From a virus (taxonomy: Duplodnaviria > Heunggongvirae > Uroviricota > Caudoviricetes): a stretch of 64,000 nt of DNA. Shown piece by piece: positions 1,207-47,432 of this stretch. The position numbers and the translations under genes were made by a program. The notes below the pieces were generated by a model. The model was not told the DNA's origin, made no database searches, and saw nothing but the letters and a program-made list of their open reading frames with translations. Location: the IMG/VR virus record IMGVR_UViG_2721755711_000002. One strand, given 5' to 3'. Position 1 is the stretch's first letter; each line of letters opens with the position of its first letter.

Positions 1207-2812
1207 TTTATCACATATTGCCGCGATGGCATTTAATGAGCCGCTTTTACTGGAACCCGCCTATGCGCGGGTTTTCTTTTGCGCACTGGGTAAGGAAATT
1301 GGGGCGGGCAGCCTTGCCGTTCCGCAGCAGGCCGTTCAGCTTGATGCCGATGGTATGCAGCTGGCGGTTACCGATTATATGACTGGTGGTCCGCGTCCGG
1401 TAAAGAGTTACCAGGTGAAAAATGGTATTGCCATTCTGCCGGTGAGCGGCACGCTGGTACATAAAATGGGCACCCTGCGGCCATATTCCGGTATGACCGG
1501 TTATGACGGTCTGACTGCCCGTCTTAAGTCAGCGGTGAACGACCCGGATGTACGCGGCATTTTACTGGATATCGACAGTCCGGGCGGTCAGGCTGCCGGG
1601 GCGTTTGACTGTGCTGACATGATTTACCGTCTGCGGGAACAGAAGCCCGTGTGGGCGCTGTGTAATGACATGGCCTGTTCAGCCGCCATGTTGCTGGCGG
1701 CGGCCTGTACGCGTCGGCTGGTCACGCAGACGGCAAAAATTGGTTCGATTGGTGTGATGATGGCGCACACCAGTTACGAGAAACAACTGGCACAGGAAGG
1801 CGTGGATATCACGCTGATTTACTCCGGGCAGCACAAGGTTGACGGCAACAGTATTCAGGCGTTGCCGACAGGTGTGCGTGCGGATTTTCAGCGCCGTATT
1901 GATGAGGCCCGCCGGATGTTTGTCGACAAGGTGGCACTTTATACGGGGCTGAGTTCAGCGGTGGTGATGAATACCGAGGCTGCCGTTTATGACGGTCAGG
2001 CAGGCATTGATACAGGCCTGGCTGATCAACTGATTAATGCTGCAGATGCCGTTGATGTAATGGTTTCTGCTCTGAACGACTCTGTTACACAGGAGAATAC
2101 GATGACAACAAAAAATCTCACCGTTGCTGAAGCGGTGTCCCAGGAAAATCAGCGCGTGATGGGGATCCTGAATTGTCAGGAGGCGAAAGGACGCGAAAAA
2201 CTGGCGCAGATGCTGGCAGGTCAGCAGGGAATGTCAGTTGAGCAGGCAAAAACATTACTGGCGGCAGCACCGGTTGCCGGTACTGACAGCACAGGCGATC
2301 AGATTGTGGCACTTCCGGAAGCAAAAGGACGTGAACAACTGGCACGGACGCTGGCTGAACAGCCGGGAATGACGGTGGAGCAGGCGAAAACGTTACTGGC
2401 AGCGGCACCGATTGCCGGTGCGGCAAGTACCGGCGAGCAGATTATGGCACTTCCGGAAGCAAAAGGGCGTGAACAACTCGCACAGGCGCTGGCTGAACAG
2501 CCGGGAATGACTGTGGAACAGGCGAAAATGCTACTGGCAGCGGCACCGGCAACCGGTACGGCAAGTACCGGCGATCAAATTATTGCGTTGCCGGAAGCAA
2601 AAGGACGCGAAAAACTGGCACAGGCGCTGGCCGAACAGCCGGGAATGACAGTGGAGCAGGCGAAAACACTGCTGGCAGCTGCGCCATCAGTATCGCAACC
2701 GTCACAGGTAACACTTTTTGAGCGCTTCATGGCACAGCATGCCGCCAGTGCCGTTTCCGGTGGCGGAACTGCCGGGAACGGGGAAGAAGAACTGCTGATG
2801 AGTATGCCGTAA
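1196..2812 (+). CDS. head maturation protease / scaffold fusion (S49 ClpP-like, lambda gpC-Nu3-like)
   Basis: 538 aa; N-terminal half resembles lambda C (S49 peptidase); C-terminal half is a repeat-rich scaffold-like domain; overlaps portal stop. Confidence 0.8.
   Translation: MRCNLSHIAAMAFNEPLLLEPAYARVFFCALGKEIGAGSLAVPQQAVQLDADGMQLAVTDYMTGGPRPVKSYQVKNGIAILPVSGTLVHKMGTLRPYSGMTGYDGLTARLKSAVNDPDVRGILLDIDSPGGQAAGAFDCADMIYRLREQKPVWALCNDMACSAAMLLAAACTRRLVTQTAKIGSIGVMMAHTSYEKQLAQEGVDITLIYSGQHKVDGNSIQALPTGVRADFQRRIDEARRMFVDKVALYTGLSSAVVMNTEAAVYDGQAGIDTGLADQLINAADAVDVMVSALNDSVTQENTMTTKNLTVAEAVSQENQRVMGILNCQEAKGREKLAQMLAGQQGMSVEQAKTLLAAAPVAGTDSTGDQIVALPEAKGREQLARTLAEQPGMTVEQAKTLLAAAPIAGAASTGEQIMALPEAKGREQLAQALAEQPGMTVEQAKMLLAAAPATGTASTGDQIIALPEAKGREKLAQALAEQPGMTVEQAKTLLAAAPSVSQPSQVTLFERFMAQHAASAVSGGGTAGNGEEELLMSMP
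2177..2700 (+). repeat. in-frame tandem repeat, 138-bp unit, about four copies, inside protease/scaffold gene
   Basis: CCGGAAGCAAAAGG motif recurs at 2315, 2453, 2591 (variant at 2177); protein repeat ALPEAKGREQLA..AEQPGMTVEQAKTLLAAAP. Confidence 0.85.
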
Positions 2813-2852
2813 GCGGGGATCCGTGATTCAGATAAATCAGGAGACTGAGAAA

Positions 2853-3188
2853 ATGATTAAAACCACCACAGAAAAGCGCGCGGACGGGCGCATTTTTGCC
2901 GGAAGCGATCCGGTGTATACCGCAACAGGTACCAGTGGTATCAGTGTTGCCACGCCTTCACTGACGCCACTGATGCTGGATGACGCCAGCGGAAAACTGG
3001 TGGCATGGGATGGTCAGAAAGCCGGAACGGCTGTGGGGGTGCTGGCACTGGCGCTGGCCGGGACCGAGCCCGTACTGACGTACTACAAAAGCGGTACGTT
3101 TGCCACCGAATCGCTGGTCTGGCCGGATTCGGTGGATGCGGTGAAAAAAGCCAACGCGTTTGTGGGAAGTGCCATCAGCCACGCCTGA
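2853..3188 (+). CDS. head decoration protein, lambda gpD-like
   Basis: about 111 aa after AGGAGA RBS; position between C and E; sequence recalls gpD family. Confidence 0.75.
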   Translation: MIKTTTEKRADGRIFAGSDPVYTATGTSGISVATPSLTPLMLDDASGKLVAWDGQKAGTAVGVLALALAGTEPVLTYYKSGTFATESLVWPDSVDAVKKANAFVGSAISHA

Positions 3189-3210
3189 TGGTGAAGTGAT
3201 TAACTGAAAA

Positions 3211-3243
3211 AAACGGGTCGTGATGCGGCCCGTTTGTGTTTTT
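3211..3243 (+). terminator. intrinsic terminator-like hairpin with T tract between D and E genes
   Basis: AAACGGGTCG-loop-CGGCCCGTTT followed by TGTGTTTTT. Confidence 0.45.
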
Positions 3244-3258
3244 AAAGGAAAGTCAATT

Positions 3259-4287
3259 ATGGGGTTATTTACCACGCGTCAGTTGCTCGGCTACACCGAG
3301 CAGAAAGTGAAATTCCGTGCGCTGTTTCTGGAGCTGTTTTTTCGTCGTACGGTCACTTTCCATACTCAGGAAGTGATGCTGGATAAAATCACCGGAAAAA
3401 CACCGGTTGCGGCATATGTGTCTCCGGTTGTGTCAGGTAAGGTACTGCGCAGTCGTGGTGGTGAAACCCGCGTGTTACGCCCCGGCTATGTTAAACCAAA
3501 ACACCGGCTGGATTATCAGCAGGCGGTGGAGCGTCTTCCGGGGGAAGATCCGGCCCGTCTTAATGACCCGGCCTACCGTCGCCTGCGTATTCTGACTGAC
3601 AACCTGAAACAGGAAGAGCAGGCGATTGTGCAGGTGGAAGAAATGCAGGCGGTCAGCGCTGTTCTGCAGGGTAAGTACACCATGAGCGGTGAACAGTTTG
3701 AGACGGTGGAAGTGGATTTTGGACGTTCTGCCGCCAATAACATTACGCAGGCAGGGGGACGCGAATGGTCAAAACAGAATGCTGACACCTTTGATCCGAC
3801 GCATGATCTGGATGCGTACTGCGATTTTGCTTCCGGTACCATCAATATTGCGATTATGGACGGTACTGTCTGGCGTATGCTGAACGGTTTTAAGCTGTTT
3901 CGTGAAAAACTGGATACCCGCCGTGGCTCAAAATCTGAACTGGAAACCGCGCTGAAAGATCTGGGTTCCGTGGTTTCTTTTAAAGGTTATTACGGTGATC
4001 TGGCCATCATGGTGGCGAAAACAACGTATGTTGATGAAAACGGGGATGAGCAGCGTTATCTGCCGGAAGGCACACTGATTCTTGGAAACACTCAGGTGGA
4101 GGGTGTCCGTTGTTATGGCGCAATCCAGGATAACCAGGCGCTGAGTGAAGGGATCACCTCTGCAATTCGTTATCCGAAACACTGGTTAGAGGTGGGGGAC
4201 CCGGGGTGCGAATATACCATGACGCAGTCTGCGCCGTTGATGGTGTTGCCGGATCCGGACGCGTTTGTGGTGGTTCAGGTGAAATAA
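3259..4287 (+). CDS. major capsid protein, lambda gpE-like
   Basis: starts MGLFTTRQLLGY; about 342 aa; recalls lambda E; ORF track start at 3220 probably too early. Confidence 0.85.
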   Translation: MGLFTTRQLLGYTEQKVKFRALFLELFFRRTVTFHTQEVMLDKITGKTPVAAYVSPVVSGKVLRSRGGETRVLRPGYVKPKHRLDYQQAVERLPGEDPARLNDPAYRRLRILTDNLKQEEQAIVQVEEMQAVSAVLQGKYTMSGEQFETVEVDFGRSAANNITQAGGREWSKQNADTFDPTHDLDAYCDFASGTINIAIMDGTVWRMLNGFKLFREKLDTRRGSKSELETALKDLGSVVSFKGYYGDLAIMVAKTTYVDENGDEQRYLPEGTLILGNTQVEGVRCYGAIQDNQALSEGITSAIRYPKHWLEVGDPGCEYTMTQSAPLMVLPDPDAFVVVQVK

Positions 4288-4337
4288 GGTCAGGCGGGAT
4301 ATTCCCGCCTTTTTCTTTATCGCACAGGAGAGATGTG

Positions 4338-4724
4338 ATGACAAAAGAAGAAATAACAGCGCGTCTTCAGGAGCTGGCGGCAGTACTCGGGCGCGATGCC
4401 GATATTTCAGGCTCTAAAGCTGATCTTGAACAGCGCCTGGCGGAATGGGAAGAGGAGGCCGCCGGATTCGATGGGGAAGGGACAGAACAGGATGATGTGC
4501 ATGATGAACAGCGTGATGCATCCGGAGGGGATGCCAGTAATGAGATGTATTCTGAGCGGGGACTCGTTCGGGTGCGCATGCTGAAAACGGCACATATGCC
4601 GTCCCGTGATGCGGTGACGGGCAAAATGTTGATGTTCGCCCTGGCCTCCAGTGTTGTGCTGGTTAATGAAGCCACAGTTCCTGCGTTGCTGGCGGACGGT
4701 CTGGCAGAAAAAATCCGGGAGTGA
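4338..4724 (+). CDS. DNA packaging protein FI-like
   Basis: MTKEEITARLQEL start after CAGGAGAG RBS; recalls lambda FI N-terminus; acidic middle. Confidence 0.6.
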   Translation: MTKEEITARLQELAAVLGRDADISGSKADLEQRLAEWEEEAAGFDGEGTEQDDVHDEQRDASGGDASNEMYSERGLVRVRMLKTAHMPSRDAVTGKMLMFALASSVVLVNEATVPALLADGLAEKIRE

Positions 4725-5128
4725 TGATGTCCGATAATCTGTTCGATCAGGCCATGAGTGATGCGGATGACATCATCCTGGATACGATGGGGACGGAAAT
4801 CAGCATATATCCGGGCGGCACGGAAAGAAAAATCCGTGCTGTTTTTGATGCCCCGGCAGATAACACCGGGATGAACACTGGCAGCGGCGAAATTCGTGAT
4901 ACTGCACCGGTGTTATTTACCCGGAGCGCATGGGTTGCCGGACTGAAAAAATATGACAGGGTCATGATCCACGGCGAACCCTACCAGGTGGTCGATCCTG
5001 GCTGGGATGAGTCAGGCACTGCGGGTCATGGTGTGATTACCATTACTCTTGCGCGGGGAGAACCCGGAAGAAGTACACCCGCCGCCCCTGTCCGACCGAG
5101 TAAACGTTATGACAGTCAGAGAGCATGA
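4721..5128 (+). CDS. head-tail joining protein FII-like
   Basis: MMMSDNLFDQAMSDADD recalls lambda FII MADFDNLFDAAI; ATGA overlap with FI stop. Confidence 0.6.
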   Translation: MMMSDNLFDQAMSDADDIILDTMGTEISIYPGGTERKIRAVFDAPADNTGMNTGSGEIRDTAPVLFTRSAWVAGLKKYDRVMIHGEPYQVVDPGWDESGTAGHGVITITLARGEPGRSTPAAPVRPSKRYDSQRA

Positions 5129-5831
5129 ACGAAGCACTGTCCGGCAGCGACGGCTGGCACGAAACCTCGTCGTCGATATTGACGAGGATGATGTGCTGAA
5201 AATTATCGCTAAACTGGGTGGTTCAAAAAGCCAGATCCGTAAAGCCTGGGGCGTGGCGCTGAAAAGAGCCGCGTCCGCACTGCGGATGAAGGCCATGGCA
5301 GAGTTTAAAAAACAGGTTGCGCCACGCAGCCAGAAAATGATCAAAAAACGTGTCCTGAATGCTTTTATCATTCGTCGAAATGGCGATGAGTTTGATGAGG
5401 TAAAGGTGTGGTTCGGCCTGAACGCCATCAAAGTGCGTGATCTGCGCGGACGCATCAGTGGGGGGCGACGCGGTGAACGCCATCAGCTGCGTGATGAACG
5501 GGGGCGTTTTGCACCGGCTTCCCGTCGCAGGAAAGCGCCGGAGATACGTTTTAAGCCCGCCGGGGAGGCAATACCGGTCACCACCTGGTCAGGTGACGAG
5601 GCTTTTGTTAATGAGTTTGAGTCTGAAAACCGGCGCGGACGCATTTCACGACGTAAGACGGTACTGGTCCGGCAGGCATCCGGACGACGAAGGGTGCGCG
5701 AAGCGGAAATTGATATTTATGAAGCCATGCTGAACCGTATAGAGGATTTTGTTTTCCCTGATGCGGAAGCACTGATCCTGAAAAATTTTGAGCATGAACT
5801 GAAATTCCGGGTATTTAAGGGGATGGAATGA
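5109..5831 (+). CDS. hypothetical virion protein (head-tail connector or tail completion position)
   Basis: about 240 aa basic protein between FII-like and baseplate V genes; no family recognised. Confidence 0.4.
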   Translation: MTVREHERSTVRQRRLARNLVVDIDEDDVLKIIAKLGGSKSQIRKAWGVALKRAASALRMKAMAEFKKQVAPRSQKMIKKRVLNAFIIRRNGDEFDEVKVWFGLNAIKVRDLRGRISGGRRGERHQLRDERGRFAPASRRRKAPEIRFKPAGEAIPVTTWSGDEAFVNEFESENRRGRISRRKTVLVRQASGRRRVREAEIDIYEAMLNRIEDFVFPDAEALILKNFEHELKFRVFKGME

Positions 5832-6394
5832 TGGAACCATTGATGATGGGAACCTGGCATCAGGCAGTGATTGACAGTCTGAAACAAATTCCCTGGGTGG
5901 AAGATGCCGATGAGTACCCGGAAAAAGTGACGCAACTGGTGACGCCTGCCGTGTTTGTGGATGTACCCGGCTGGGACAAGGCTCAGTTTGCCGACGGGCA
6001 GACACGGGTCACGCTGAAATGCGATCTGTTTGTGGTGACTGATCGGGCCGGAAAGACGGAAAACGTGCCAAAACCGCAGATATTTGCCCGCTGTCTGGCA
6101 ATGGATTTATCTGACTGGATTGATGGAGCCACGTTCGGGCTGGATAACGTTGATCCGGCGGTTTTTATTGATGCTGAGGTGGATACCTTCGACCGACTGC
6201 TGGACGACTACATCGTTTTCCGTGTCTCTTTTGAACAGGACATTCCGGTCGGCGAAGATCCGTTTGCGGCTCCGGCAGGTGTGCCGTTACAGGAAGTCTG
6301 GCTGGGTAAAGTACCGGAAACCGGTAAAAAGCATGTGCAGGATTATCGTCTTATCTGGAAAGCGGAGGGCACCGGCGATGAGTCTGGCGGATGA
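5828..6394 (+). CDS. hypothetical tail protein
   Basis: 188-aa ORF, ATGA overlap with upstream gene, inside structural operon. Confidence 0.4.
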   Translation: MMEPLMMGTWHQAVIDSLKQIPWVEDADEYPEKVTQLVTPAVFVDVPGWDKAQFADGQTRVTLKCDLFVVTDRAGKTENVPKPQIFARCLAMDLSDWIDGATFGLDNVDPAVFIDAEVDTFDRLLDDYIVFRVSFEQDIPVGEDPFAAPAGVPLQEVWLGKVPETGKKHVQDYRLIWKAEGTGDESGG

Positions 6395-36428: not shown

Positions 36429-37242
36429 GTTTGCCCTTCTCCGTTAAAAATTCGTCGGGTAGTTTCTGAGGGGCGTAGATCGGCAGTGCATCGCAACTGC
36501 AATAAACCTCCTCCCCAGCAGCAGTGATTTCGTCATAAAAACCATATACGGGCTTAATCAGCCCCTGCTCCAGCGCCCACGAATTGCGGAGGAGATAAAT
36601 TTTCTCGTCGCGCTCTTTGTGGTCCTGTCGGTATTTGTAGCCCGGACGCCGCCAGTTAGAATGCCAGCGCAGAGCAATCGCTCCACTCTGAACAGCCAGC
36701 AGATACTTAACGTTGCTTGCCAGCTTATGCCCCTGGTCAATTGCCACCCGGCGACTGATAAAATCCATATCCTTCACGGACTTCTGAAAACCGGACTTCA
36801 CTTCCCGGCGATCAATTTCGCTCACCCCGTCAGGCGGAATGGACGTAACCCACCCCTGAAAACGCTGTATGGTTTTCTCGATGGCCTGTTCGCGGTTGAG
36901 TTTTATCAGGTTGGCACTGGCGAAAATTCGCCTGTCGAGTTCCTTGCGAAACTCAGGTTTCAGTTTTTCAACAGTGACTTTTTTAGGGCCGTCAGGAGGC
37001 TGCTCCCGTAATGCCCCGCCGTCGATGACAAGACGGCTGTAGATGGCGGTGAGATGTTTTCTGGCTACGGTATCATCAGGGGTTTCTCGCTGAGCGGCTA
37101 CACGGAGTTTCCGGCACCATTCGAGCAATGATTTTTCGCTATCCCACCCGTGATTTACGTAGTAGTTAACGGCATCCGTCAGAACCTCATATAGCGTCCT
37201 GATCCGTTTCTTCTTCCTCACCGCCCGGCTGGAAATTGCCAT
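36409..37242 (-). CDS. head morphogenesis protein (candidate)
   Basis: about 277 aa after portal; start uncertain. Confidence 0.4.
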   Translation of the reverse strand: MAISSRAVRKKKRIRTLYEVLTDAVNYYVNHGWDSEKSLLEWCRKLRVAAQRETPDDTVARKHLTAIYSRLVIDGGALREQPPDGPKKVTVEKLKPEFRKELDRRIFASANLIKLNREQAIEKTIQRFQGWVTSIPPDGVSEIDRREVKSGFQKSVKDMDFISRRVAIDQGHKLASNVKYLLAVQSGAIALRWHSNWRRPGYKYRQDHKERDEKIYLLRNSWALEQGLIKPVYGFYDEITAAGEEVYCSCDALPIYAPQKLPDEFLTEKGKREFNRA

Positions 37243-38626
37243 CAGGCGTCTCCTGCTTCGGTGGTTCATAATTCGCCAGCGCGTCCACATCAATGATGAG
37301 TGGAGCTTCGCCATAGGTTTGCGTGGCATTAACAAGGCTTGCCAGCCATTCAGTGACGGCGGCACGGTTTTCAGGATCAACCTGTGGCGACACGGCAGAG
37401 AAAAGTGCTATCGCCTGTTGAATCACTTTACTGTCGCTTTCCCGGCGTTTGTCCGGCGACTCCTCCACCAGCTCCTGCCATGTCGCGGTAAATTCACGTC
37501 GCCACTGGTAAAACGTGGTTTTATAGTCATCAGTTATGATGTCCGGGTAATCATTTTTCAGCGACTGATAAAATTCCTCGTTCCAGGCGATGTACTGCAC
37601 CAGGCGTTCGAAATAATCCATCACAGGTTCAATCTGCTGGCGTACACCATCGATATACTGGCTGATAGCTTTCGAATCCTCAGTTCCTTCACCGAAACCA
37701 TTCGAGAAAGCCTCCTCCTTGATGAGAATCGCGGGAACATCGCTACCTGATGCAATATCGGAAATAATGTTGTCGCGGGCGGCATTTAGCGCGCCATCGA
37801 TGTTTTGTAAATTCAGCGAGGTAACGTCCTCATCCTTCCCGATACTAAGCACACCTTTATTTTTTGCCTCTTTGACATTTTCCCTTTTTCGTCCCGTGGC
37901 GGCAGCCATGATCCCGTCAAGTTTCGAACCGTTTTGCACAACTTTAGCTACCAGTACGCCCGCTTTCTGACTGACGAGATCATTCGCCTCCATCGTGTTG
38001 ATATAGGATTTCAGGGAATAAAGAACGCGCTGAAACACGCTTCGCCCGGTGAATCCGAACGATGAACTCTGAAACTCCAGATAAATCGGTGTGCCGTTGA
38101 AAATTTTCAACGTGCGTGACGGATGCCAGTCTTTTCCGCCAATCTTCAGCTTTTTATTGGCTTCCTGGAAAAACGGACTGTTTGGGTTCTGGTCAGTCAC
38201 CATCGAACCGGAAGCGTTCAACGGATCCCACGCGTTGATATACACATCCTCTTCTGTCAGTCCGAACGTCGGAAGCGGTTCACGACATGAAACACTGTCG
38301 GTGCCCACGCCGATCGCTGCGGCACCGTAGCAACGAGACAGAAAAAACAGATTTTTAATCTTCTCGTTGACTTTCATACGTTCCCATACCTCCTGAAAAC
38401 GCCGCACAACCCTCTCGTCAGGATCTGTCTCCACGTTATACTGTCGCGGCTTACACATCGCCATCAGTATGGGTTTTTCGACAAGTTTTCCGCCCAGAGG
38501 ATGGAATTGCCACAGCAGCTTACACAGTTCATAGCCGATATCGGTTCCCGGCTGAATTTCTTCAGCCTCAAGAATACGCATCAGTGCCGAACCGAGGCCG
38601 CCAGTAATCTCGATCTCTGCCATCAA
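37187..38626 (-). CDS. portal protein
   Basis: 479 aa directly downstream of large terminase; acidic C-terminus. Confidence 0.65.
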   Translation of the reverse strand: MMAEIEITGGLGSALMRILEAEEIQPGTDIGYELCKLLWQFHPLGGKLVEKPILMAMCKPRQYNVETDPDERVVRRFQEVWERMKVNEKIKNLFFLSRCYGAAAIGVGTDSVSCREPLPTFGLTEEDVYINAWDPLNASGSMVTDQNPNSPFFQEANKKLKIGGKDWHPSRTLKIFNGTPIYLEFQSSSFGFTGRSVFQRVLYSLKSYINTMEANDLVSQKAGVLVAKVVQNGSKLDGIMAAATGRKRENVKEAKNKGVLSIGKDEDVTSLNLQNIDGALNAARDNIISDIASGSDVPAILIKEEAFSNGFGEGTEDSKAISQYIDGVRQQIEPVMDYFERLVQYIAWNEEFYQSLKNDYPDIITDDYKTTFYQWRREFTATWQELVEESPDKRRESDSKVIQQAIALFSAVSPQVDPENRAAVTEWLASLVNATQTYGEAPLIIDVDALANYEPPKQETPDGNFQPGGEEEETDQDAI

Positions 38627-38641
38627 AAATATCCTGATTTT

Positions 38642-39970
38642 TTACAACGCCGCGTAATTACCGTGCGCAATGATCAATCCATAGGTGTAACAATCGAAAA
38701 GGTCATCAGCACGTTTATGCGCGTCTTTGTCTGCCAGGTGGAACCCGGCGATTTGTTTGATGAGGTGGTTTGCGGTTGTGCGCTTGAATGAAACGGTTTT
38801 GTCGTAAGCCTCGCGGGTAATTTTGCATTTACCCTGGTAATGGTGGCTGGAAGCCAGCACCGCGCGCTCGTCTTTCCCTTTGCTGGTTAACGCTGATTTA
38901 ATCGGCGTCATATCCCAGCCTTCGGTTTCCGCTTTCTGGTTGAGGATTGCGCCCATTGCGGCATCCTCCATGAATACCCCCTGACTCCCCAGGCGCGGGC
39001 GGCAGAGTTGCGCCAGCCGCTCGAGGTTGTCATAAACACCGGGGATATACTCAGGAAGCAGCGACGCTTTAATTTGCGTCACATCCCAGTCGATAACGGT
39101 CAGTTTCGGCTCATCGGAATACGTGGACTCATACGCGAAGTAAACCACGCCTGTCCCGTCGTTCTCCGTCCCGCCTTTCAGCGCCGTATCCATTACCGCA
39201 AAAATCATGTCGCAGTGTCGCGGCATCTCAACCGGCTGGCCATCCACCAGCAGCTTATCGACATCGAGTAACGCGTCTTTGGACCAGTCTACGAACTCTG
39301 CAAGATATTCCTGCTGCCAGACGCGCGGATCGGATTTCTTCTCCGTTTCCTCCAGTTCTTCTTTCGGAATATACGGATTCGATGAAGTTGGCGCATGGTG
39401 CATAACAAATCCCAGGGATTCATCGTGGCATATCGCGTAGAAAAAATTGCTCTCGTCGATACCGTTTGGTGTGGAAAATACCCACGCACAGCCGCGGTAA
39501 TCGACAAGCGTCGGGCGTATCGCTCGGGGCCAGATTTCCTCGAGCATTTCCGGCGATTTAGTGAATGCGGCCTCATCAATCAGCACAGCGTGATATTTAC
39601 GCCCACGCCCGGCCAGTTTGTTATTGTCCGTTACCCAAAAGTCGATGCGCCCCCCATTACGGAGAATGATGCGCTTTTCATTTTTTGACTGACTGAGGAT
39701 CAGCGGTTGCAGAACGGCGCTAATTTCATCCCAGATTTCCTGGTACTGGCGGTATTGCGCGGTAAAAATCCCCACCCTACCCGCGATAAGTTGCCCAGTG
39801 GTAGGAACGGCAAATTTCCGCGTAGCGAAACTGGTAGCGATGTTCACCAGCATCACCGTTTTACCCCAGCGACGACCACAGCATACCGCGTGGAAGCGTT
39901 CCTCTATTGCCGCCGTCCATGCAGCTATTTGCCCCTCATGAGGTTTTGGGAGGTAGATTTCAATCGACAT
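38642..39970 (-). CDS. terminase large subunit
   Basis: 442 aa; Walker A-like GRRWGKT near N-terminus. Confidence 0.8.
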   Translation of the reverse strand: MSIEIYLPKPHEGQIAAWTAAIEERFHAVCCGRRWGKTVMLVNIATSFATRKFAVPTTGQLIAGRVGIFTAQYRQYQEIWDEISAVLQPLILSQSKNEKRIILRNGGRIDFWVTDNNKLAGRGRKYHAVLIDEAAFTKSPEMLEEIWPRAIRPTLVDYRGCAWVFSTPNGIDESNFFYAICHDESLGFVMHHAPTSSNPYIPKEELEETEKKSDPRVWQQEYLAEFVDWSKDALLDVDKLLVDGQPVEMPRHCDMIFAVMDTALKGGTENDGTGVVYFAYESTYSDEPKLTVIDWDVTQIKASLLPEYIPGVYDNLERLAQLCRPRLGSQGVFMEDAAMGAILNQKAETEGWDMTPIKSALTSKGKDERAVLASSHHYQGKCKITREAYDKTVSFKRTTANHLIKQIAGFHLADKDAHKRADDLFDCYTYGLIIAHGNYAAL

Positions 39971-41051
39971 TATCCACTCCCGGCATCGGCAGAGAGTTGT
40001 GGATAATTATTTCGTTATTCTCACCACCCACGCCTTTTTTGAGGTTTTCAATCTCAGTGCGCAGCTTTTCGTTGCGAAGCCTCAGTCCTTCAAGCTCCAG
40101 ATCATTGCGACTGTCAGTTGCACCACCAGCAGAACTTCCTTTCGTCGCCATTATCAGCTTGATAAGTTCGCGCCGGGCGGCAGCCTTATCCTCCAGCAGG
40201 ATCTCAACACCAAATTTCCCGAGCTTTGCCCCTGCATATAATTGTCGCGCATCCCCATCAAGCAGAGTGGTATCAGCCATATAAAGCTGTCCCGTTCCCT
40301 CACCGCAGCACTTCGGACAATCCGGATTGGGTATGGCGTTATCAACAAAGCCGAGGCCTCCATATTCCGGCTCGGGTTTGCCATCTCTGGAGGCCTGTGC
40401 CGCTGCCTTATCGAATTCTGCAATATCACGCCACTGGTAGAGATGATTCTCGCCCCAGCAATAACGGCAGTTAACACGGCGAAATTGTGCCAACTGATTG
40501 GGGTCGGCCTGGACAATAGCCATCAACTGACTCACCAGTAAATCCAGGTCTGCGGTATAGCGTTTCTGATACTGATTGCGGAAGTAGCTGATAGCACGAT
40601 AAACCCTGGCATTTCTAAGCATACGGCTGGCGTTGCTGTTAGCTGTCGCACCTTGCCCCTCATAACCAGCCAGTCGGTATGCCTCTGTCGGCTTTTTCCC
40701 CTGAGCAACAAGCATCGCAAACTTAGCCTGCTGGTCAGAAATGCCGAATTCATCGGGGCAGAACGAAAATTCCTCCGCGTCGCCCTCATTCAGGCACGCA
40801 TCGGATACTGGCTTTTTTTTCTGAGATTTTCCGTTCCGCTTTTGCGCAGTCTGCGCAGATTTTTTCTGCGCACTTTGTTGCGCAGTTTTGCGCATTTCTG
40901 TCTGCGCATTTTTCGGAGGTTTTTTGATGTAACGACGGGCTGTTGCGTAATTCAGTCCCCTTGCCTCACACCATGCCACCGGAGATACACCGGAGCGGGT
41001 GTATTCAGCAATATATTCCTGCTGCAACGCCCCCCAGTCCGGTCTGCTCAT
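39960..41051 (-). CDS. terminase small subunit (candidate) with N-terminal HTH
   Basis: 363 aa immediately upstream of TerL; basic linker; Cys cluster. Confidence 0.5.
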   Translation of the reverse strand: MSRPDWGALQQEYIAEYTRSGVSPVAWCEARGLNYATARRYIKKPPKNAQTEMRKTAQQSAQKKSAQTAQKRNGKSQKKKPVSDACLNEGDAEEFSFCPDEFGISDQQAKFAMLVAQGKKPTEAYRLAGYEGQGATANSNASRMLRNARVYRAISYFRNQYQKRYTADLDLLVSQLMAIVQADPNQLAQFRRVNCRYCWGENHLYQWRDIAEFDKAAAQASRDGKPEPEYGGLGFVDNAIPNPDCPKCCGEGTGQLYMADTTLLDGDARQLYAGAKLGKFGVEILLEDKAAARRELIKLIMATKGSSAGGATDSRNDLELEGLRLRNEKLRTEIENLKKGVGGENNEIIIHNSLPMPGVDNVD

Positions 41052-41054
41052 TAG

Positions 41055-41306
41055 TTAGTCCTGATTTTTATCCACCCTGAGTAGTTCACGCAGGGCAAAG
41101 GCATCCCCTTTTCTGGCAAGCTTAAACAATGCCGCCCGTAGTTCGGCTTCACCTTTCGCTCTGCCCTTACGGATGGATGCGTAAAAATCTGTCATTGCTT
41201 CCCGATTTTCTTTCAGTCGGTTCAGATCAACATCCAGAACGTCAGCGATTTGTTGTGCAGTCATCCGGCACGCTGCCAGAGACTCGACTTTCGAATACGG
41301 AATCAT
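41055..41306 (-). CDS. small HTH-like protein
   Basis: 83 aa helical protein upstream of terminase genes. Confidence 0.4.
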   Translation of the reverse strand: MIPYSKVESLAACRMTAQQIADVLDVDLNRLKENREAMTDFYASIRKGRAKGEAELRAALFKLARKGDAFALRELLRVDKNQD

Positions 41307-42174
41307 TTGTCACCCCCATTGATATGCAGGGTGTCTTCTTCCTGTATTTTTCGTGAAGGATTTTTACTGCAGCGTTGTTCCAGGTGACCTGATGGTGAAT
41401 GCGTTTATGGCTGGCCCCCATCAGTGAGATTTTTACGCACGAGGGCGCATACATGACGGAGTAAAAACTTTTAACGTAGGTTCCGGAATCCAGATACAGC
41501 TCGGTCATTCCGCCGCTGTTTTTCTGCGTCTGTTTCTGCCCTAACTGGACAGCACCGATCGTCATAAACAATTCACCACAGCGACCGAGATTCGTGTACG
41601 TATTCACATCCTCGTTAATGCGCCCCATGAATGAGAACGGTCGATCAACCGAACAGATAAAGCTGTTCATTGCCTTGCGTTTCACCCACGAAGCATGGCC
41701 GCCATTGTCACCAAGAAAATCCCCGCCCTGCGACATAGCGATGGAAAGCGCGGGTATTGATTCGTAATACGCCAGCATTTCAGAAAGGATCGCATCCAGT
41801 TTCCTTATCGGGAAATAGGCCTGGTCATAGTTGCGATCCACCCGAAACTGGAACTCGTGATAATCATCATCGAGCTGAATGAAGTATTTACACCCGACCA
41901 TTTTTGCCAGGTCGAAACAGGCATTACGGGCGTAAAAAATTGAGCGGCGGTCACCGAAATTATCGGCTTCGTCAAAACGACTGGCGATATCGGCTTTGGA
42001 AAACACCAGCACCTGTTCACCAAATTCAGCTATGTACTGATGCCGTGTCTTATCTTCATCATCAACAACGATAAAAATTTTCCCGGTATAGCCAGCACGA
42101 CGCAACGTCCGGTAAGTCAGAACTTTGTCCGGTCGCCCGTGAGTCAGAATAAAGGCGCAAAAATCATCACGCAT
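41242..42174 (-). CDS. GT-A fold (family 2-like) glycosyltransferase, soluble
   Basis: FILTHGRPD..IFIVVDDEDKT..ARNACFDLAK..YFIQLDDDY fits GT2 N-terminal pattern and DxD motif; no TM segments. Confidence 0.5.
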   Translation of the reverse strand: MRDDFCAFILTHGRPDKVLTYRTLRRAGYTGKIFIVVDDEDKTRHQYIAEFGEQVLVFSKADIASRFDEADNFGDRRSIFYARNACFDLAKMVGCKYFIQLDDDYHEFQFRVDRNYDQAYFPIRKLDAILSEMLAYYESIPALSIAMSQGGDFLGDNGGHASWVKRKAMNSFICSVDRPFSFMGRINEDVNTYTNLGRCGELFMTIGAVQLGQKQTQKNSGGMTELYLDSGTYVKSFYSVMYAPSCVKISLMGASHKRIHHQVTWNNAAVKILHEKYRKKTPCISMGVTNDSVFESRVSGSVPDDCTTNR

Positions 42175-42955
42175 ATTCCTCCTCCCCGCCATGCATGATC
42201 TCCACCATGCGCTGCGTCATCCGGACAAAACCATTTTCGATGGCTTGCTGATAATCAATGATCACCAGTGCCGACTCCTCAAAAAGGCCCTGAATTTCAG
42301 CGGGGGCGTGAGCGTAATAGTCTGCAATTCTGCTGAAATTAAACACCGTGTGGCGTTCTGCCGCGCACAGGAGGAATTTTTCGATATCAGGCTCAAGGGA
42401 CGCCGTACGTATCCGGCTGACCAGCTCCTGAGTTTTCGTATCGTCGTACAGTTCACTGATATCCGGTTCATCCCCTGACGGCTCATAAACAGGCGTATCA
42501 ATTTTCGTCGTGTACGGCTCATCCTCATTCGCTGTACCTGGCAAAACATCCGTTAATAGTTCGTCAATTTCTGTCGGGCAGAATCCTGTCAGGGAGATAT
42601 CAAAATCAGCATTGATTAGGTCCGACAGCTCCATCCGTAACAGATCTTCATCCCAGCCAGCACTCATCGGCAGGCGATTATCAGCCAGGCGGTACGCCTT
42701 TTTCTGATCATCCGTCAGACCAGACAGAACAATGACCGGAACCGAATCCATTTTGAGCGCCTCAGCCGCCATAACACGCCCGTGCCCCGCAATAATTTCA
42801 CCCTTTTCATCAATCAGCACCGGATTTGTCCAGCCGAATTGCTTAATGCTTTCAACCAGCTGTGTCACCTGTTCAGGAGAGTGTGTCCTTGCATTGTGCA
42901 CATACGGAGACAACTCTTGTAACAGTCGATAGACAATATTCAATTTTTCGCTCAT
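42167..42955 (-). CDS. ParB-like nuclease domain protein
   Basis: N-terminus LSPYVHNARTHSPEQ..GWTNPVLID..IIAGHGRVMAA resembles ParB/Srx domain; acidic C-terminal half. Confidence 0.55.
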   Translation of the reverse strand: MSEKLNIVYRLLQELSPYVHNARTHSPEQVTQLVESIKQFGWTNPVLIDEKGEIIAGHGRVMAAEALKMDSVPVIVLSGLTDDQKKAYRLADNRLPMSAGWDEDLLRMELSDLINADFDISLTGFCPTEIDELLTDVLPGTANEDEPYTTKIDTPVYEPSGDEPDISELYDDTKTQELVSRIRTASLEPDIEKFLLCAAERHTVFNFSRIADYYAHAPAEIQGLFEESALVIIDYQQAIENGFVRMTQRMVEIMHGGEEEYA

Positions 42956-43353
42956 ACAACCTCGCTTTATGAATAAAAAACTAACAGCAGCCAGTGGAGA
43001 GCATTTATCATTAACATTTACAGATAAGATGACGTACATCATTGAAACGCCATTCAGCCATATACCGGCAGCATTCGTAGTTGCACTCCGTAACTCTGCG
43101 ACTAAGGTTAAAAACATGGCCCTCTTTCGCCACCGGCAAATCTTCCATGGATTTCCCCTGCCGGTTTTTTATTTTCGTCGATGCATAACATTGCATTTAC
43201 ATCAATACCGTCTATTGTCATAAGTATGTTGTACCGATGCTCGGGTGATATTGGCGGTCTTCGCCGGCCGGTTCTGTGTAGCTGTTCCCTGTGACCGGTT
43301 TTTTATTTCTCACATTATCGCAGCCCCTCGCTGAAGGGCTGCTGTAATGTCTG

Positions 43354-45732: not shown

Positions 45733-45939
45733 TTATTGCTTTAGTGTCATTTGCGCTTCAATAAAGCGACGGCGGTTCTCCGCAATAACAAACGCCATTG
45801 CCAGCCCTTTGACGGCTGCATCATGACCATACCGGGTCTGAGCAGCAGCAAACCTTCGTTCTATCGCTGCTACAGAATCAATGGCAGAATCTGCTATGCA
45901 ATTTTCAAATTCAGTTATCACTTCTGTCGAAGAGGTCAT
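45733..45939 (-). CDS. small hypothetical protein (68 aa), uncertain
   Basis: helical-looking ORF in late-operon orientation; its ATG is back to back with the ATG at 45940. Confidence 0.3.
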   Translation of the reverse strand: MTSSTEVITEFENCIADSAIDSVAAIERRFAAAQTRYGHDAAVKGLAMAFVIAENRRRFIEAQMTLKQ

Positions 45940-46620
45940 ATGTACTCCCTGAAAATTAGATGCCCGTACTGCCTTCATCAGGTTCATATTTCTCTGAATG
46001 AGGTCACCCAGTACCACAGCAGGCGCCCGGCTACAGAAAACAAGCTTTACGTGCAACAGCCGCGCACCTCTGAAATAACATCAGCAAAAGCATACTCAAC
46101 AGACTTTTGCACAGAATGTAACAACCCATTAATGATCGCATTCGAATGTTCAGTCAGTGAACTGGTGGACATGAAAAAAGCCATCAACAACAAAGCCTGG
46201 GTGCTGAATGCTCCACTTGAGGGAAGCATCAAAATCTATCCTGAACTCAGGCTGCCCGATGACTCCCCCCACTATCCCGAAAAAATTCGCGCAGTCTTCA
46301 CCGAGTTGCAAGAGGATGTTCGGTCCGGCAGAACCGCCCCGCGTATCATTGTTGGCTGCCGTAGCGTCCTCGAGGTTGCCCTCCGTGCCCTGGGGTACGA
46401 AAAAGGCAATCTGCTGTCACGCATTGAACTGGCACGGCAGGACGGCATACTGACGGAATCAATGAGAAACTGGGCTCACCGAATCCGTATGGAAGGCAAT
46501 GAGGCTGTGCACGAGCTCGAGGCCAGTGGTGAACAGGCAAAAGAGTTTGTGGCGTTTCTCCGCCTGTTCCTTGAAGTGGCATTTGTGCTACCGGAACGCA
46601 TTAAGGAACAGCAGCAATAA
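45940..46620 (+). CDS. Cys-pair / HEPN-like (DUF4145-type) protein, candidate defence effector
   Basis: C-terminal ..MRNWAHRIRMEGNEAVHELE.. fits R-x-x-x-G-N-x-A-V-H signature recalled for DUF4145; CPYC and CTEC pairs; start could be 46132 or 46171. Confidence 0.45.
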   Translation: MYSLKIRCPYCLHQVHISLNEVTQYHSRRPATENKLYVQQPRTSEITSAKAYSTDFCTECNNPLMIAFECSVSELVDMKKAINNKAWVLNAPLEGSIKIYPELRLPDDSPHYPEKIRAVFTELQEDVRSGRTAPRIIVGCRSVLEVALRALGYEKGNLLSRIELARQDGILTESMRNWAHRIRMEGNEAVHELEASGEQAKEFVAFLRLFLEVAFVLPERIKEQQQ

Positions 46621-46654: not shown

Positions 46655-46813
46655 TCAGCTGTTGTTTTTGTTCCGGAATAAAGGCCGGAGCACGACCAGC
46701 GCCATCGCCACCAGTACACCATCAGCCAGTACCGACATCAGCCGTCCGGTGAAATCCACCGCCACTACCAGAAACAGCAGGACGGCAGCCAGCGCAAGGC
46801 GTGCACTTTTCAC
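46655..46813 (-). CDS. small membrane peptide (52 aa, GTG start overlapping TerB stop)
   Basis: VKSARLALAAVLLFLVVAVDFTGRLMSVLADGVLVAMALVVLRPLF; hydrophobic; read by hand. Confidence 0.3.
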   Translation of the reverse strand: MKSARLALAAVLLFLVVAVDFTGRLMSVLADGVLVAMALVVLRPLFRNKNNS

Positions 46814-47235
46814 AGGTACTGCTCCAGCGGTAACTGCAGCGCCTGAGCAATTTTCTTGAGCTGTGCTTCTTCATCCGGACCAATGCCATCCTGGTCTGCG
46901 ATATCCAGACACAGGCACAGCACATTAACGGCATCATCAGTACCGGCGACATCAGCCAGTTGACGGAGGGCTTCAGCATTGGCAGAACGCGGCGATGCTT
47001 CATAACGGGCGCGGATATTCGCGCTCATCTGGGCAATCTCACCGGAGAACGGCGCAAAGGCAGGAAGTGCTGCAATGGTTTTCTCCAGTACCGCAATTTC
47101 TTTCGCGTCACAGGTGTCGTCAGCGTATGCAATGGAATACGCGCCCCAGACGGTCGCCTCCACCGCGTCGCGGTTCTCCATTTTCTTCACTTCAGTAATA
47201 GCCTTACGGGTTTTCTTTTTGAAAATACCAAACAT
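46810..47235 (-). CDS. TerB-domain protein
   Basis: MFGIFKKK start after AGGA RBS; C-terminal VLCLCLDIADQDGIGPDEEAQLKKIAQAL typical of TerB-like fold. Confidence 0.55.
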   Translation of the reverse strand: MFGIFKKKTRKAITEVKKMENRDAVEATVWGAYSIAYADDTCDAKEIAVLEKTIAALPAFAPFSGEIAQMSANIRARYEASPRSANAEALRQLADVAGTDDAVNVLCLCLDIADQDGIGPDEEAQLKKIAQALQLPLEQYL

Positions 47236-47432
47236 CGTGACTTTTCCTTTTAGTGGGTGAGCCTCGCCCCGGGATGAGCAGCCCACAGAGAAAGTCACAC
47301 TGACCATCCCGTAAGCTCCCCCCTGAAAGGCTCTGTGGTTTTTTGATGTGCGCCGGGCGTGGCGCAGATATGAAAAAGGCCACGCACGTGCGCAGCCTGA
47401 TAATTTTCTGAATCAGCGGAGTGTCAGCTGGT

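Follow-up and report, generated by a model that had tools for sequence, protein, structure and literature searches.

A ParB-fold protein and a TAGT-family sugar transferase form a conserved phage gene pair with a possible role in DNA modification

Two overlapping genes of a lambdoid Escherichia coli prophage encode a sugar transferase of the TAGT family and a ParB-fold partner, and the two are found together across many bacterial phyla and in an archaeal virus. They may constitute a self-contained, horizontally mobile phage module. In the reading that we favor, and to which we would give about an even chance, the enzyme is tethered to DNA, or activated there, by its ParB partner, and late sugar modification serves as a counter-defense. 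Within this reading we infer the DNA acceptor, the modified atom, the sugar, the clamp or tether role, the NTP dependence, and the benefit in counter-defense. In the literature searched there was no experimental work on the ParB-TAGT pair (an earlier computational mention of the pairing is possible) and no report of modified DNA in any carrier phage.

The stretch of DNA analyzed here (the window) is 64,000 nucleotides long (IMG/VR record IMGVR_UViG_2721755711_000002) and comes from the prophage, where the pair lies upstream of terS and terL. The initial annotation had described two overlapping minus-strand genes ahead of the terminase, and the list of open reading frames (ORFs) bears this out. 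The gene for the ParB-fold partner occupies 42167-42955 (minus strand; 262 aa) and is defined by its ORF, ribosome-binding site, ATG, and matches to Pfam ParB_N and phrog_620. The gene for the TAGT-family GT-A sugar transferase occupies 41242-42174 (minus strand; 310 aa). The stop of the former and the start of the latter overlap by 8 nt (ATGCGTGA, 42167-42174, minus strand), an arrangement that, as read from the sequence, is consistent with translational coupling. The partner gene has a GAGG ribosome-binding site 5 nt before its ATG. The longest transferase ORF covers 41242-42192; homologs and the PGAP annotation begin at the ATG at 42174, which gives the 310-aa product and is preceded by a ribosome-binding site (GGAGGAGG). 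In E. coli annotations the partner gene carries the name ynaK, and PGAP describes its product as a “ParB/Srx family N-terminal domain-containing protein.” The pair was found in 1247 of 5426 complete E. coli genomes (~23%). We also considered K-12 ydaY as a possible transferase remnant, and rejected it when tblastn found no transferase similarity in K-12 Rac.

The pair shares its orientation with the late genes of the prophage and directly adjoins them. Its conserved downstream neighbors, terS (39960-41051) and terL (38642-39970), both on the minus strand, were identified by matches to Pfam Terminase_2 and Terminase_6N and to phrog_51 and phrog_2. Between the transferase gene and terS lies a small minus-strand ORF (41055-41306; 69 aa in PGAP, which calls it hypothetical, and 83 aa at most; phrog_309, 2e-22). 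An ORF of ~75-86 aa takes this position in nearly all enterobacterial-type loci and only inconsistently in other phyla; the small ORF is context, outside the pan-phylum cassette. A promoter scan gave no surplus of promoter-like sites, terminator-like sites were about threefold commoner than in shuffled sequence, and no strong-stem terminator-like site was present from 43354 to the start of the ParB gene.

Profile and structure searches, as recommended in the initial annotation, placed both proteins. The transferase matches Pfam TAGT (PF20691) at 121.5 bits (cutoff 27.5), over model positions 4-205 of 205, and the partner matches Pfam ParB_N at 28.4 bits (cutoff 26.3), its predicted structure matching ParB-CDP in Foldseek (6sdk, 9e-6). 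The transferase also matches phrog_842 (1e-102) and has thousands of homologs; with such a score and so many relatives, the family match is far beyond chance. No NCBIfam model matched it, and a PDB sequence search returned no match.

The transferase has the GT-A (nucleotide-diphospho-sugar transferase) fold, and three motifs could be located on the minus strand: the catalytic HGRPD (aa 12-16, from 42141), which contains R14; the metal- and NDP-sugar-binding DDD (aa 102-104; 41863-41871); and the catalytic NEDV (aa 187-190; 41605-41616). R14, D102-D104, and E188-D189 are invariant among 20 homologs of 59%-82% identity. The R...DDD...ED(Y/F) motif set, as defined for phage GT-A DNA transferases and JGT (bioRxiv 10.1101/2023.12.21.572611), is present, with Val at the third position of the last motif. 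The Pfam match stops near aa 222, and a C-terminal extension beyond the model (aa 216-282; 41329-41529, minus strand) is strongly conserved and poorly modeled (pLDDT 30-55). No membrane-like segment was detected in the transferase (maximum Kyte-Doolittle 19-residue mean 1.08). The enzyme had at first been read as GT2-like, with a DDD motif and no membrane segment; the motif and the solubility stand, whereas the family is TAGT rather than CAZy GT2 proper. It should be noted that the window transferase is both soluble and phage-encoded.

The TAGT family (PF20691) includes the second glucosyltransferase of T2/T6, the base-J glucosyltransferase, and GREB1. Iyer et al. are said to have defined TAGT in 2013 and to have discussed ParB in modification clusters. 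The T2/T6 enzyme acts on DNA (PMC13216743), as does the TAGT relative JGT (bioRxiv 10.1101/2023.12.21.572611), and TAGT is the one GT-A family whose characterized phage and kinetoplastid members glycosylate DNA bases. GREB1, also a family member, O-GlcNAcylates protein (PMC7968844). Solitary TAGTs with undefined function occur in 288 of 753 phage genomes (PMC13216743).

The sequence matches of the partner extend to phrog_620 (3e-86) and, in the PDB, to ParB/Spo0J. In its AF2 model, an NBD (aa 1-95) is followed by a helical part (103-134), a disordered linker (137-169), and a second set of helices (172-255). The ParB-CTPase-fold N-terminal domain (aa 1-95; 42671-42955, minus strand) is modeled with pLDDT 71-91 and contains the conserved N21-A-R23-T-H25, G57-H-G-R60, and A-D-N93; besides ParB-CDP, Foldseek matched Noc, MxParB, KorB, and Srx (sulfiredoxin). 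By motif inspection, R23, R60, and N93 were assigned as the equivalents of R54, R95, and N127 of MxParB, which contact phosphate in the NTP pocket; where the canonical ParB GERR box has its catalytic Glu, the partner has His58. Residues 1-142 also match ParB-methyltransferase fusions (phrog_498, 6e-49; PADLOC MTase_II, 6e-37). The helical segment that leads to the linker (aa 103-134; 42554-42649, minus strand) is modeled as helices 103-115, 120-123, and 127-134. Within the disordered acidic linker (aa 137-169; pLDDT <50) is a conserved linear motif, YTTKIDTPVYEP (aa 148-159; 42479-42514, minus strand). Across the window protein and 51 diverse partners, the pattern Y-t-x-K-I-x-x-P-x-Y-e-P is at least 90% conserved, except for its t and e (70%-90%). 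The remainder is a C-terminal helical “adaptor” domain (aa 172-255; 42191-42442, minus strand) that is conserved across phyla, matches no Pfam model, and forms a family of 1191 clusters at 50% identity. The motif and adaptor also exist as a stand-alone protein of 130-140 aa adjoining TAGT genes.

The ParB/Srx-like domain with an acidic C-terminal half that had been proposed from the sequence holds up: the ParB_N and Srx matches are as given above, and residues 100-262 have a pI of 4.05 (37 D+E versus 10 K+R). The protein as a whole is very acidic (pI 4.4), and an HTH DNA-binding domain was found neither by family match nor in the AF2 model. Since the partner has no recognizable HTH and is so acidic, a tether or activator is, going by the model, a more fitting description of it than the DNA-binding or nuclease protein that was first suggested; a ParB domain does not in itself imply nuclease activity. 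A ParB of a partition (ParABS) system was considered and rejected, as there is no parA nearby, the TIGR00180 score is 35.4 bits against a cutoff of 58.45, and the model has no HTH. Near the genes, parS-like repeats amounted to short, chance-like matches, with no convincing palindromic site.

The association of the two proteins is very consistent. Among 62 diverged loci from many bacterial phyla (transferase identity 42%-83%), the first gene of the operon is a ParB homolog in 61. In 60 a full-length homolog is directly upstream, and in most of these it overlaps the beginning of the transferase gene by 4-11 nt. Of the two exceptions, one (L117) carries ParB followed by a TAGT::SAM-methyltransferase fusion and then a TAGT. 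In one case (P0499) a TAGT is naturally fused to the whole ParB partner, with 38% identity to the window ParB (E = 2e-48). The pairwise identities of the transferase correlate with those of the partner (r = 0.85), and the correlation is highest for the C-terminal half of the partner (r = 0.87). Transferase identity is 42%-60% across Gram-negative and Gram-positive bacteria and ~43% in the archaeal virus, and so wide a range of hosts speaks for an acceptor that is universal, as DNA is. Across phyla, no third gene is conserved alongside the two. The pair is also present in virulent phages; four cultured phages of Lactobacillus delbrueckii (LL-Ku, phiLdb, Ld17, and Ld25A) have a broken transferase gene or have lost it.

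Position in the genome is likewise conserved. A large ORF lies 0.3-2 kb downstream in 49 of 51 loci, and all of those tested (43 of 43) are TerL, from four Pfam families. The cultured phages c5 and phi jlb1 keep the ParB-TAGT-terminase order; HHTV-2, the archaeal virus, has TerL ~2.9 kb downstream of the pair. In phage c5, the ParB gene begins 79 nt past the cos site. The stand-alone adaptor and its TAGT occur in replication modules: between DNA polymerase A and the phage sliding clamp (L130 and L132), beside a C5 DNA methylase (L134), and between primase/exonuclease genes and a helicase gene (Vibrio phage pv27). In L130, a phosphatase/cytidylyltransferase-like protein is an additional neighbor.

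In the mechanism that we propose, ParB would be an obligate partner built from the N domain, the helical segment, the acidic linker with YTxKIxxPxYEP, and the C-terminal adaptor. The motif and adaptor would bind the transferase, and probably activate it, and the N domain, as an NTP-gated dimer or clamp, would carry the complex to DNA. Lying just ahead of terS/terL, the pair would be expressed along with the late operon, and around the time of packaging, either shortly before it or while it proceeds, the transferase would move a sugar from an NDP-sugar to phage DNA that has been replicated; the sugar-modified genome, once injected, would be protected in the next host. NTP-site mutations in the ParB176/5mYOX176 system left function unabolished (PMC13229309), and the clamp part of the idea may thus be wrong.

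An important complication is the acceptor. To our knowledge, every characterized TAGT-family enzyme requires a hydroxyl, on 5hmU, glucosyl-5hmC, or Ser/Thr. In the window prophage we found no TET/JBP-type dioxygenase, hydroxymethylase-type ThyS homolog, or first glucosyltransferase, with the caveat that divergent dioxygenases could escape Pfam. No co-encoded source of a hydroxyl acceptor was found in five further loci (L002-L006), and no hydroxymethyl-pyrimidine pathway in the complete 31.8-kb, 50-ORF genome of Lactobacillus phage c5, in which no unassigned ORF exceeds ~208 aa and the ones tested had no TET/ThyS match. The first 50 kb of the T4-like Vibrio phage pv27 encode a thymidylate synthase, DHFR, and dNMP kinase, which are ambiguous as hydroxymethylase evidence. 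The missing hydroxymethyl acceptor makes the chemistry of sugar transfer a directly testable question. We tentatively suggest, as a minority view of our own, that the ParB-linked TAGT clade puts sugar directly on canonical DNA (a base heteroatom, the backbone, or ends) with no hydroxymethyl handle, and that delivery is processive, by the ParB-type ring in temperate phages or by the phage sliding clamp in lytic ones. We know of no precedent for sugar transfer onto canonical DNA. The original suggestion of DNA or nucleotide modification has gained from the TAGT assignment, the ParB module shared with methyltransferase fusions, and the relatives in replication modules, although we still infer it, no hydroxymethyl-pyrimidine source was found in the window prophage, and GREB1 acts on protein.

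Other readings of the same data need to be weighed. One, which we consider unlikely, is O-glycosylation of a protein by the transferase, the simplest target being its own partner at YTxKIxxPxYEP, to give a modified effector such as a decoy or regulator. GREB1 provides the example of protein O-GlcNAcylation by a TAGT (PMC7968844), the partner is the sole universally co-occurring gene product, its linker motif offers Tyr148, Thr149, and Tyr157, and the carrier phages examined have no hydroxymethyl base. However, Thr149 is not invariant, the genomic contexts are centered on DNA (polymerase, clamp, helicase, DNA methylase, terminase), the ParB N module is common to DNA methyltransferase fusions, and the tandem TAGTs, the TAGT::methyltransferase fusion, and the phosphatase/cytidylyltransferase-like neighbor in L130 resemble DNA-glycan clusters. 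Slightly less probable still is ordinary TAGT chemistry on 5-hydroxymethyl-pyrimidines, the base being made by an unrecognized phage or host enzyme, or the target being the hydroxymethylated DNA of other phages. Family membership with intact motifs fits this, as do the C5 DNA methylase beside adaptor and TAGT in L134 and the nucleotide-metabolism genes of pv27, and many phage 5mYOX enzymes are missed by the Pfam TET_JBP model (PMC13229309). Against it, no candidate was seen in the complete c5 genome or the window prophage, and no third gene accompanies the pair across phyla.

The location immediately upstream of terS/terL, with four terminase families, and the proximity to cos in c5 could instead point to a packaging accessory, in which ParB marks or organizes the DNA around pac/cos on behalf of the terminase, with the GT-fold protein in a structural or regulatory role. 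This seems very improbable to us, given that the catalytic residues are strictly conserved, that the transferase has been broken or lost in the four L. delbrueckii phages, that adaptor and TAGT occur in replication modules with no terminase gene nearby, and that the ParB has no HTH for site recognition. We assign the smallest likelihood of all to prophage defense or lysogenic conversion, in which the lysogen would benefit from modification of its surface or of superinfecting phage DNA. Morons are often found in this part of lambdoid prophages, and hypermodification of invading genomes by prophage glycosyltransferases is a speculation of Pyle et al.; yet the pair is contiguous and co-oriented with late genes, occurs in virulent phages, and is conserved from Gram-negative and Gram-positive hosts to an archaeal virus, the transferase lacks a membrane segment and a Gtr-type partner, and the PADLOC match is only to the shared methyltransferase N module. 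A surface-polysaccharide role for the transferase, the assignment against which the initial annotation had set its own proposal, is effectively excluded: the enzyme is soluble, there is no gtrA/gtrC-type neighbor, and conservation crosses phyla and Gram types and reaches the archaeal virus.

If the module does modify DNA, then ~23% of complete E. coli genomes carry prophages that can sugar-coat their own DNA with just two genes, and the same would hold for many temperate phages of Bacteroides, Veillonella, Lactobacillus, Clostridia, and haloarchaea. This would bear on escape from restriction and CRISPR, on the choice of phages for therapy, and on the sequenceability of phage DNA. Direct addition of sugar to canonical DNA, if true, would be a new DNA modification chemistry, in viruses of both bacteria and archaea. 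The partner would extend the recently described role of orphan ParB-fold activators from dioxygenases to glycosyltransferases, and the adaptor domain, given its many clusters and the lack of a Pfam model, could help to predict which “solitary” TAGTs are functional.

Compared with known TAGTs (T2/T6, base-J, metavirome GT-A, and GREB1), the window enzyme shares the family threshold, the GT-A fold, and R...DDD...ED. It differs in its extra conserved C-terminal region of ~65 aa, in its pairing with a ParB/adaptor protein, and in its occurrence in phages in which no 5hmC/5hmU pathway was found; it is only 23%-26% identical to TAGTs of T4-like Aeromonas phages, and those of T2/T6 were not detected by tblastn. 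The T4 alpha-glucosyltransferase works with the replisome/gp45 clamp (as summarized in PMC13216743), and there is a likeness in the idea of a sugar transferase tethered to a ring on DNA, the clamp link here consisting of gene adjacency only (L130 and L132). The T4 enzyme, unlike the window system, has a GT-B fold and no adaptor. GtrABC/GT2 seroconversion likewise involves a GT-A fold enzyme of temperate phages. Enzymes of the GtrB type are anchored in the membrane and work together with a flippase and a serotype-specific transferase, whereas the window transferase has neither a membrane segment nor Gtr neighbors, is in a late-operon position, and is flanked by ParB and terminase genes.

A ParB-fold, NTP-binding protein accompanies a DNA-modifying enzyme in the DpdA/DpdB and DndB systems also (7-deazaguanine and phosphorothioate, respectively). 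These differ in their unrelated chemistry and in being part of cellular defense islands rather than phage late operons. DndB is mentioned along with the prophage fusions of a ParB-CTPase fold to DNA methyltransferases (PMC12704722), to which the N-terminal 140 residues of the window partner are closely related, and both are enriched in prophages. In those fusions the enzyme is part of the same chain, whereas the ParB module here is fused to an adaptor that would recruit a separate enzyme, and a sugar, not a methyl group, would be added. The layout has a precedent in ParB-like proteins with an NBD, helices, linker, and CTD and no HTH, on which a class of phage thymine dioxygenases depends for activity on dsDNA (PMC13229309). 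Like ParB176, the window partner is an orphan ParB fold with the order NBD-helices-disordered linker-CTD and no HTH, and its gene adjoins that of the modifying enzyme, which for ParB176 is the post-replicative DNA-modifying enzyme 5mYOX176 (PMC13229309). The neighbor in the window is a TAGT glycosyltransferase rather than a dioxygenase, and its activation by the partner is putative; both 5mYOX176 and the window transferase carry a clade-specific C-terminal extension.

From about 17 kb onward the window is a lambdoid E. coli prophage, and the 2.2 kb queried around the pair (41000-43200) is 100% identical to E. coli OkiPb01716. The initial annotation placed two overlapping minus-strand genes upstream of the terminase genes, and this is borne out: the ParB partner gene (42167-42955, 262 aa) and the transferase gene (41242-42174, 310 aa) are each preceded by a Shine-Dalgarno sequence, and the ParB stop and transferase ATG overlap by 8 nt (ATGCGTGA). 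The transferase ORF reaches 42192; its start was taken as the ATG at 42174, as in homologs and in PGAP. The order on the minus strand is lysis genes, ParB partner, transferase, an ORF of 69-83 aa, terS (39960-41051), and terL (38642-39970). For the gene after terL (37187-38626, minus strand), in the portal position, PGAP gives the label “anti-CBASS protein Acb1 family protein” in the identical E. coli record. Exact copies of the 9-mer GATTTTTAC number only seven across the whole 64 kb, and the 9-mer is clustered at 41063-41436 (exact at 41181 on the minus strand and at 41359 and 41428 on the plus strand, with a one-mismatch copy at 41063, plus strand), covering the 3' end of the transferase gene and the small ORF. 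Because the cluster lies just upstream of terS, these may be candidate pac/TerS-binding repeats. The pair is present in 1247 of 5426 complete E. coli genomes.

The transferase matches the Pfam TAGT family (PF20691) at 121.5 bits (cutoff 27.5) and phrog_842 at 1e-102. Residues R14, D102-D104, and E188-D189, unchanged throughout an alignment of 20 homologs, match the R...DDD...EDY/F motif set of phage GT-A DNA glycosyltransferases and the base-J glucosyltransferase (bioRxiv 10.1101/2023.12.21.572611). The DDD motif noted earlier is thus invariant, and the description of the enzyme as soluble also stands, as hydropathy of the protein sequence revealed no membrane-like segment. Its identity to the TAGTs of T4-like Aeromonas phages is only 23%-26%, and those of T2/T6 were not detected by tblastn. 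About 65 conserved residues in the C-terminal part extend beyond the Pfam model and are poorly modeled in the predicted structure.

Residues 1-95 of the partner (ynaK in E. coli annotations) adopt a ParB-CTPase fold, based on profile, PDB sequence, AF2 model, and Foldseek comparisons. This agrees with the ParB-like domain proposed initially, as does the acidic C-terminal half (pI 4.05; whole protein, 4.4). Given the motifs N21-A-R23, G57-H-G-R60, and D92-N93, the positions that contact phosphate in canonical ParB seem to be kept and the catalytic Glu to be replaced by His, correspondences that were set by motif inspection. Residues 1-142 are strongly similar to the N-terminal module of ParB::DNA-methyltransferase fusions (phrog_498, 6e-49; PADLOC MTase_II, 6e-37). 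In the AF2 model, helices (103-134) are followed by a disordered acidic linker (137-169) with YTTKIDTPVYEP and then a helical C-terminal domain; no HTH was found. The ynaK of K-12 Rac (87 aa; L128, NC_000913.3 1425377-1425640) corresponds to the first 89 codons of the partner gene (89% identity). The remainder and the entire transferase gene are deleted there, with no transferase remnant and no similarity of ydaY to the transferase by tblastn.

Transferases 42%-60% identical to that of the window occur in prophages or contigs of Bacteroides, Veillonella, and Clostridia, as well as in a Virgibacillus plasmid, Saccharibacteria, Desulfovibrionaceae, Acidobacteriota, and a MAG labeled archaeal. 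Of the 62 loci whose transferase is <90% identical, 60 have a full-length ParB homolog immediately upstream (phmmer E-values 1e-24 to 1e-118), in most cases with a 4-11 nt overlap at the transferase start. One exception (L125) is a truncated transferase. In the other (L117, a Hyphomonadaceae MAG, 2722-6161), ParB is followed by a 565-aa TAGT with a C-terminal SAM-methyltransferase-like domain and then by a second TAGT, a gene set suggestive of a methylated product with two sugars. An ORF of at least 380 aa begins 0.3-2 kb downstream in 49 of the 51 loci with enough sequence, and the 43 that were tested all encode large terminase subunits, from four Pfam families (Terminase_6N, 28; Terminase_3, 11; GpA, 3; TerL_ATPase, 1). 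Cultured viruses share this arrangement. Lactobacillus phage c5 has cos at 1-11, ParB at 90-863, and the transferase at 835-1713, then TerS and TerL; the gene order is the same in Lactobacillus phage phi jlb1. In haloarchaeal virus HHTV-2 the pair is genes 21 and 22, and TerL follows some 2.9 kb downstream. Beyond the terminase genes, no gene is conserved with the pair.

The linker motif and C-terminal domain of the partner (the adaptor, residues about 148-250) also occur free-standing, as proteins of 130-140 aa always adjoining TAGT genes. That of Vibrio phage pv27, 55% identical to window residues 148-244, lies between primase/exonuclease genes and a helicase gene. Two lytic-type phage contigs encode PolA, sliding clamp (phrog_947), adaptor, TAGT, TAGT, a histidine-phosphatase/cytidylyltransferase-like fusion that may be a candidate maker of the sugar donor, RecU, and RecA (L130, 5891-10098), and PolA, TAGT, adaptor, TAGT, and clamp (phrog_947; L132, 6150-9333). 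A third contig (L134) has a C5 DNA methylase, a 75-aa ORF, adaptor, and TAGT, with DnaB and RusA farther along. Clustering at 50% identity gives 1191 clusters for the adaptor family, mostly the C-terminus of 250- to 310-aa ParB proteins, and no Pfam model matches it. In one 534-aa protein (P0499), a TAGT domain (Pfam 4e-33) is fused to an entire partner, which is 38% identical to the window ParB (E = 2e-48). Across loci, identities of transferase and partner covary (r = 0.85), most highly for the C-terminal half (r = 0.87). Stand-alone adaptors, fusion, and covariation together make the adaptor the putative transferase-binding part, and the ParB N domain a probable add-on characteristic of the version next to the terminase genes, found mostly in temperate phages.

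The acceptor of all characterized relatives is a hydroxyl, in 5hmU or glucosyl-5hmC (PMC13216743, bioRxiv 10.1101/2023.12.21.572611) and, for GREB1, in Ser/Thr (PMC7968844). We found no TET/JBP dioxygenase or hydroxymethylase in the window prophage, in five independent neighborhoods of the pair, or in the whole 50-ORF phage c5 genome. With the hydroxymethyl base absent, three options are live: canonical DNA is glycosylated by a new chemistry; a protein is the acceptor, possibly at the motif of the partner itself; or an unrecognized hydroxymethylase supplies the acceptor. The huge host range of the pair argues for a universal acceptor.

The same prophage carries an N6/N4 DNA methyltransferase (Pfam 7.5e-45; 48619-49665, minus strand) near antiterminator Q (50226-50921), probably a further DNA-modification gene, independent of the pair. 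The stretch from the holin genes to the Q region encodes a DUF4145 protein on the opposite, plus strand (45751-46620), adjoined by a TerB-like “tellurite resistance” protein (phrog_632; 46810-47307, minus strand); both look like moron/accessory genes. The early region of E. coli OkiPb01716 is Rac-like (recE/recT, kilR, ralR, intR), and tRNA genes follow its lysis genes, in contrast to DUF4145, TerB-like, methylase, Q, and DUF968 genes in 43000-64000 of the window. Given the identical cassette stretch, cassette and packaging genes are thus common to mosaic prophages. In several Lactobacillus delbrueckii phages (phiLdb, Ld17, LL-Ku, Ld25A; records H50-H60, H73-H74), the transferase is matched in two pieces or as a C-terminal remnant only, and is therefore dispensable for growth. 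The persistence of the ParB gene beside these broken transferases indicates that virulent dairy phages lost the enzyme repeatedly.

Both protein families are already known and annotated (PGAP: “GREB1-related protein” and “ParB/Srx family N-terminal domain-containing protein”). Solitary TAGTs have been flagged as undefined (PMC13216743), and ParB genes near phage glycosyltransferases have been mentioned (bioRxiv 10.1101/2023.12.21.572611). In the literature searched, which did not extend to the founding bioinformatic paper, we found no description of an obligate ParB-TAGT operon, the adaptor domain, the fixed position before the terminase genes, or independence from hydroxymethyl-pyrimidine pathways.

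Overall, the reading best supported by the evidence is that of a sugar transferase directed at DNA and a partner that tethers it there or activates it; the acceptor atom, sugar, NTP dependence, and biological benefit are what we infer. Modification of DNA about to be packaged would fit the late-operon position. Tethering of the enzyme to the clamp is suggested by the sliding-clamp genes adjoining adaptor and TAGT in lytic-phage contigs and, by analogy, by the reported association of T4 alpha-GT with the replisome (PMC13216743). The closest experimental precedent is one class of phage thymine dioxygenases, which depend on ParBs needed specifically on dsDNA (PMC13229309); these share the domain layout of the window partner and, like it, lack an HTH.
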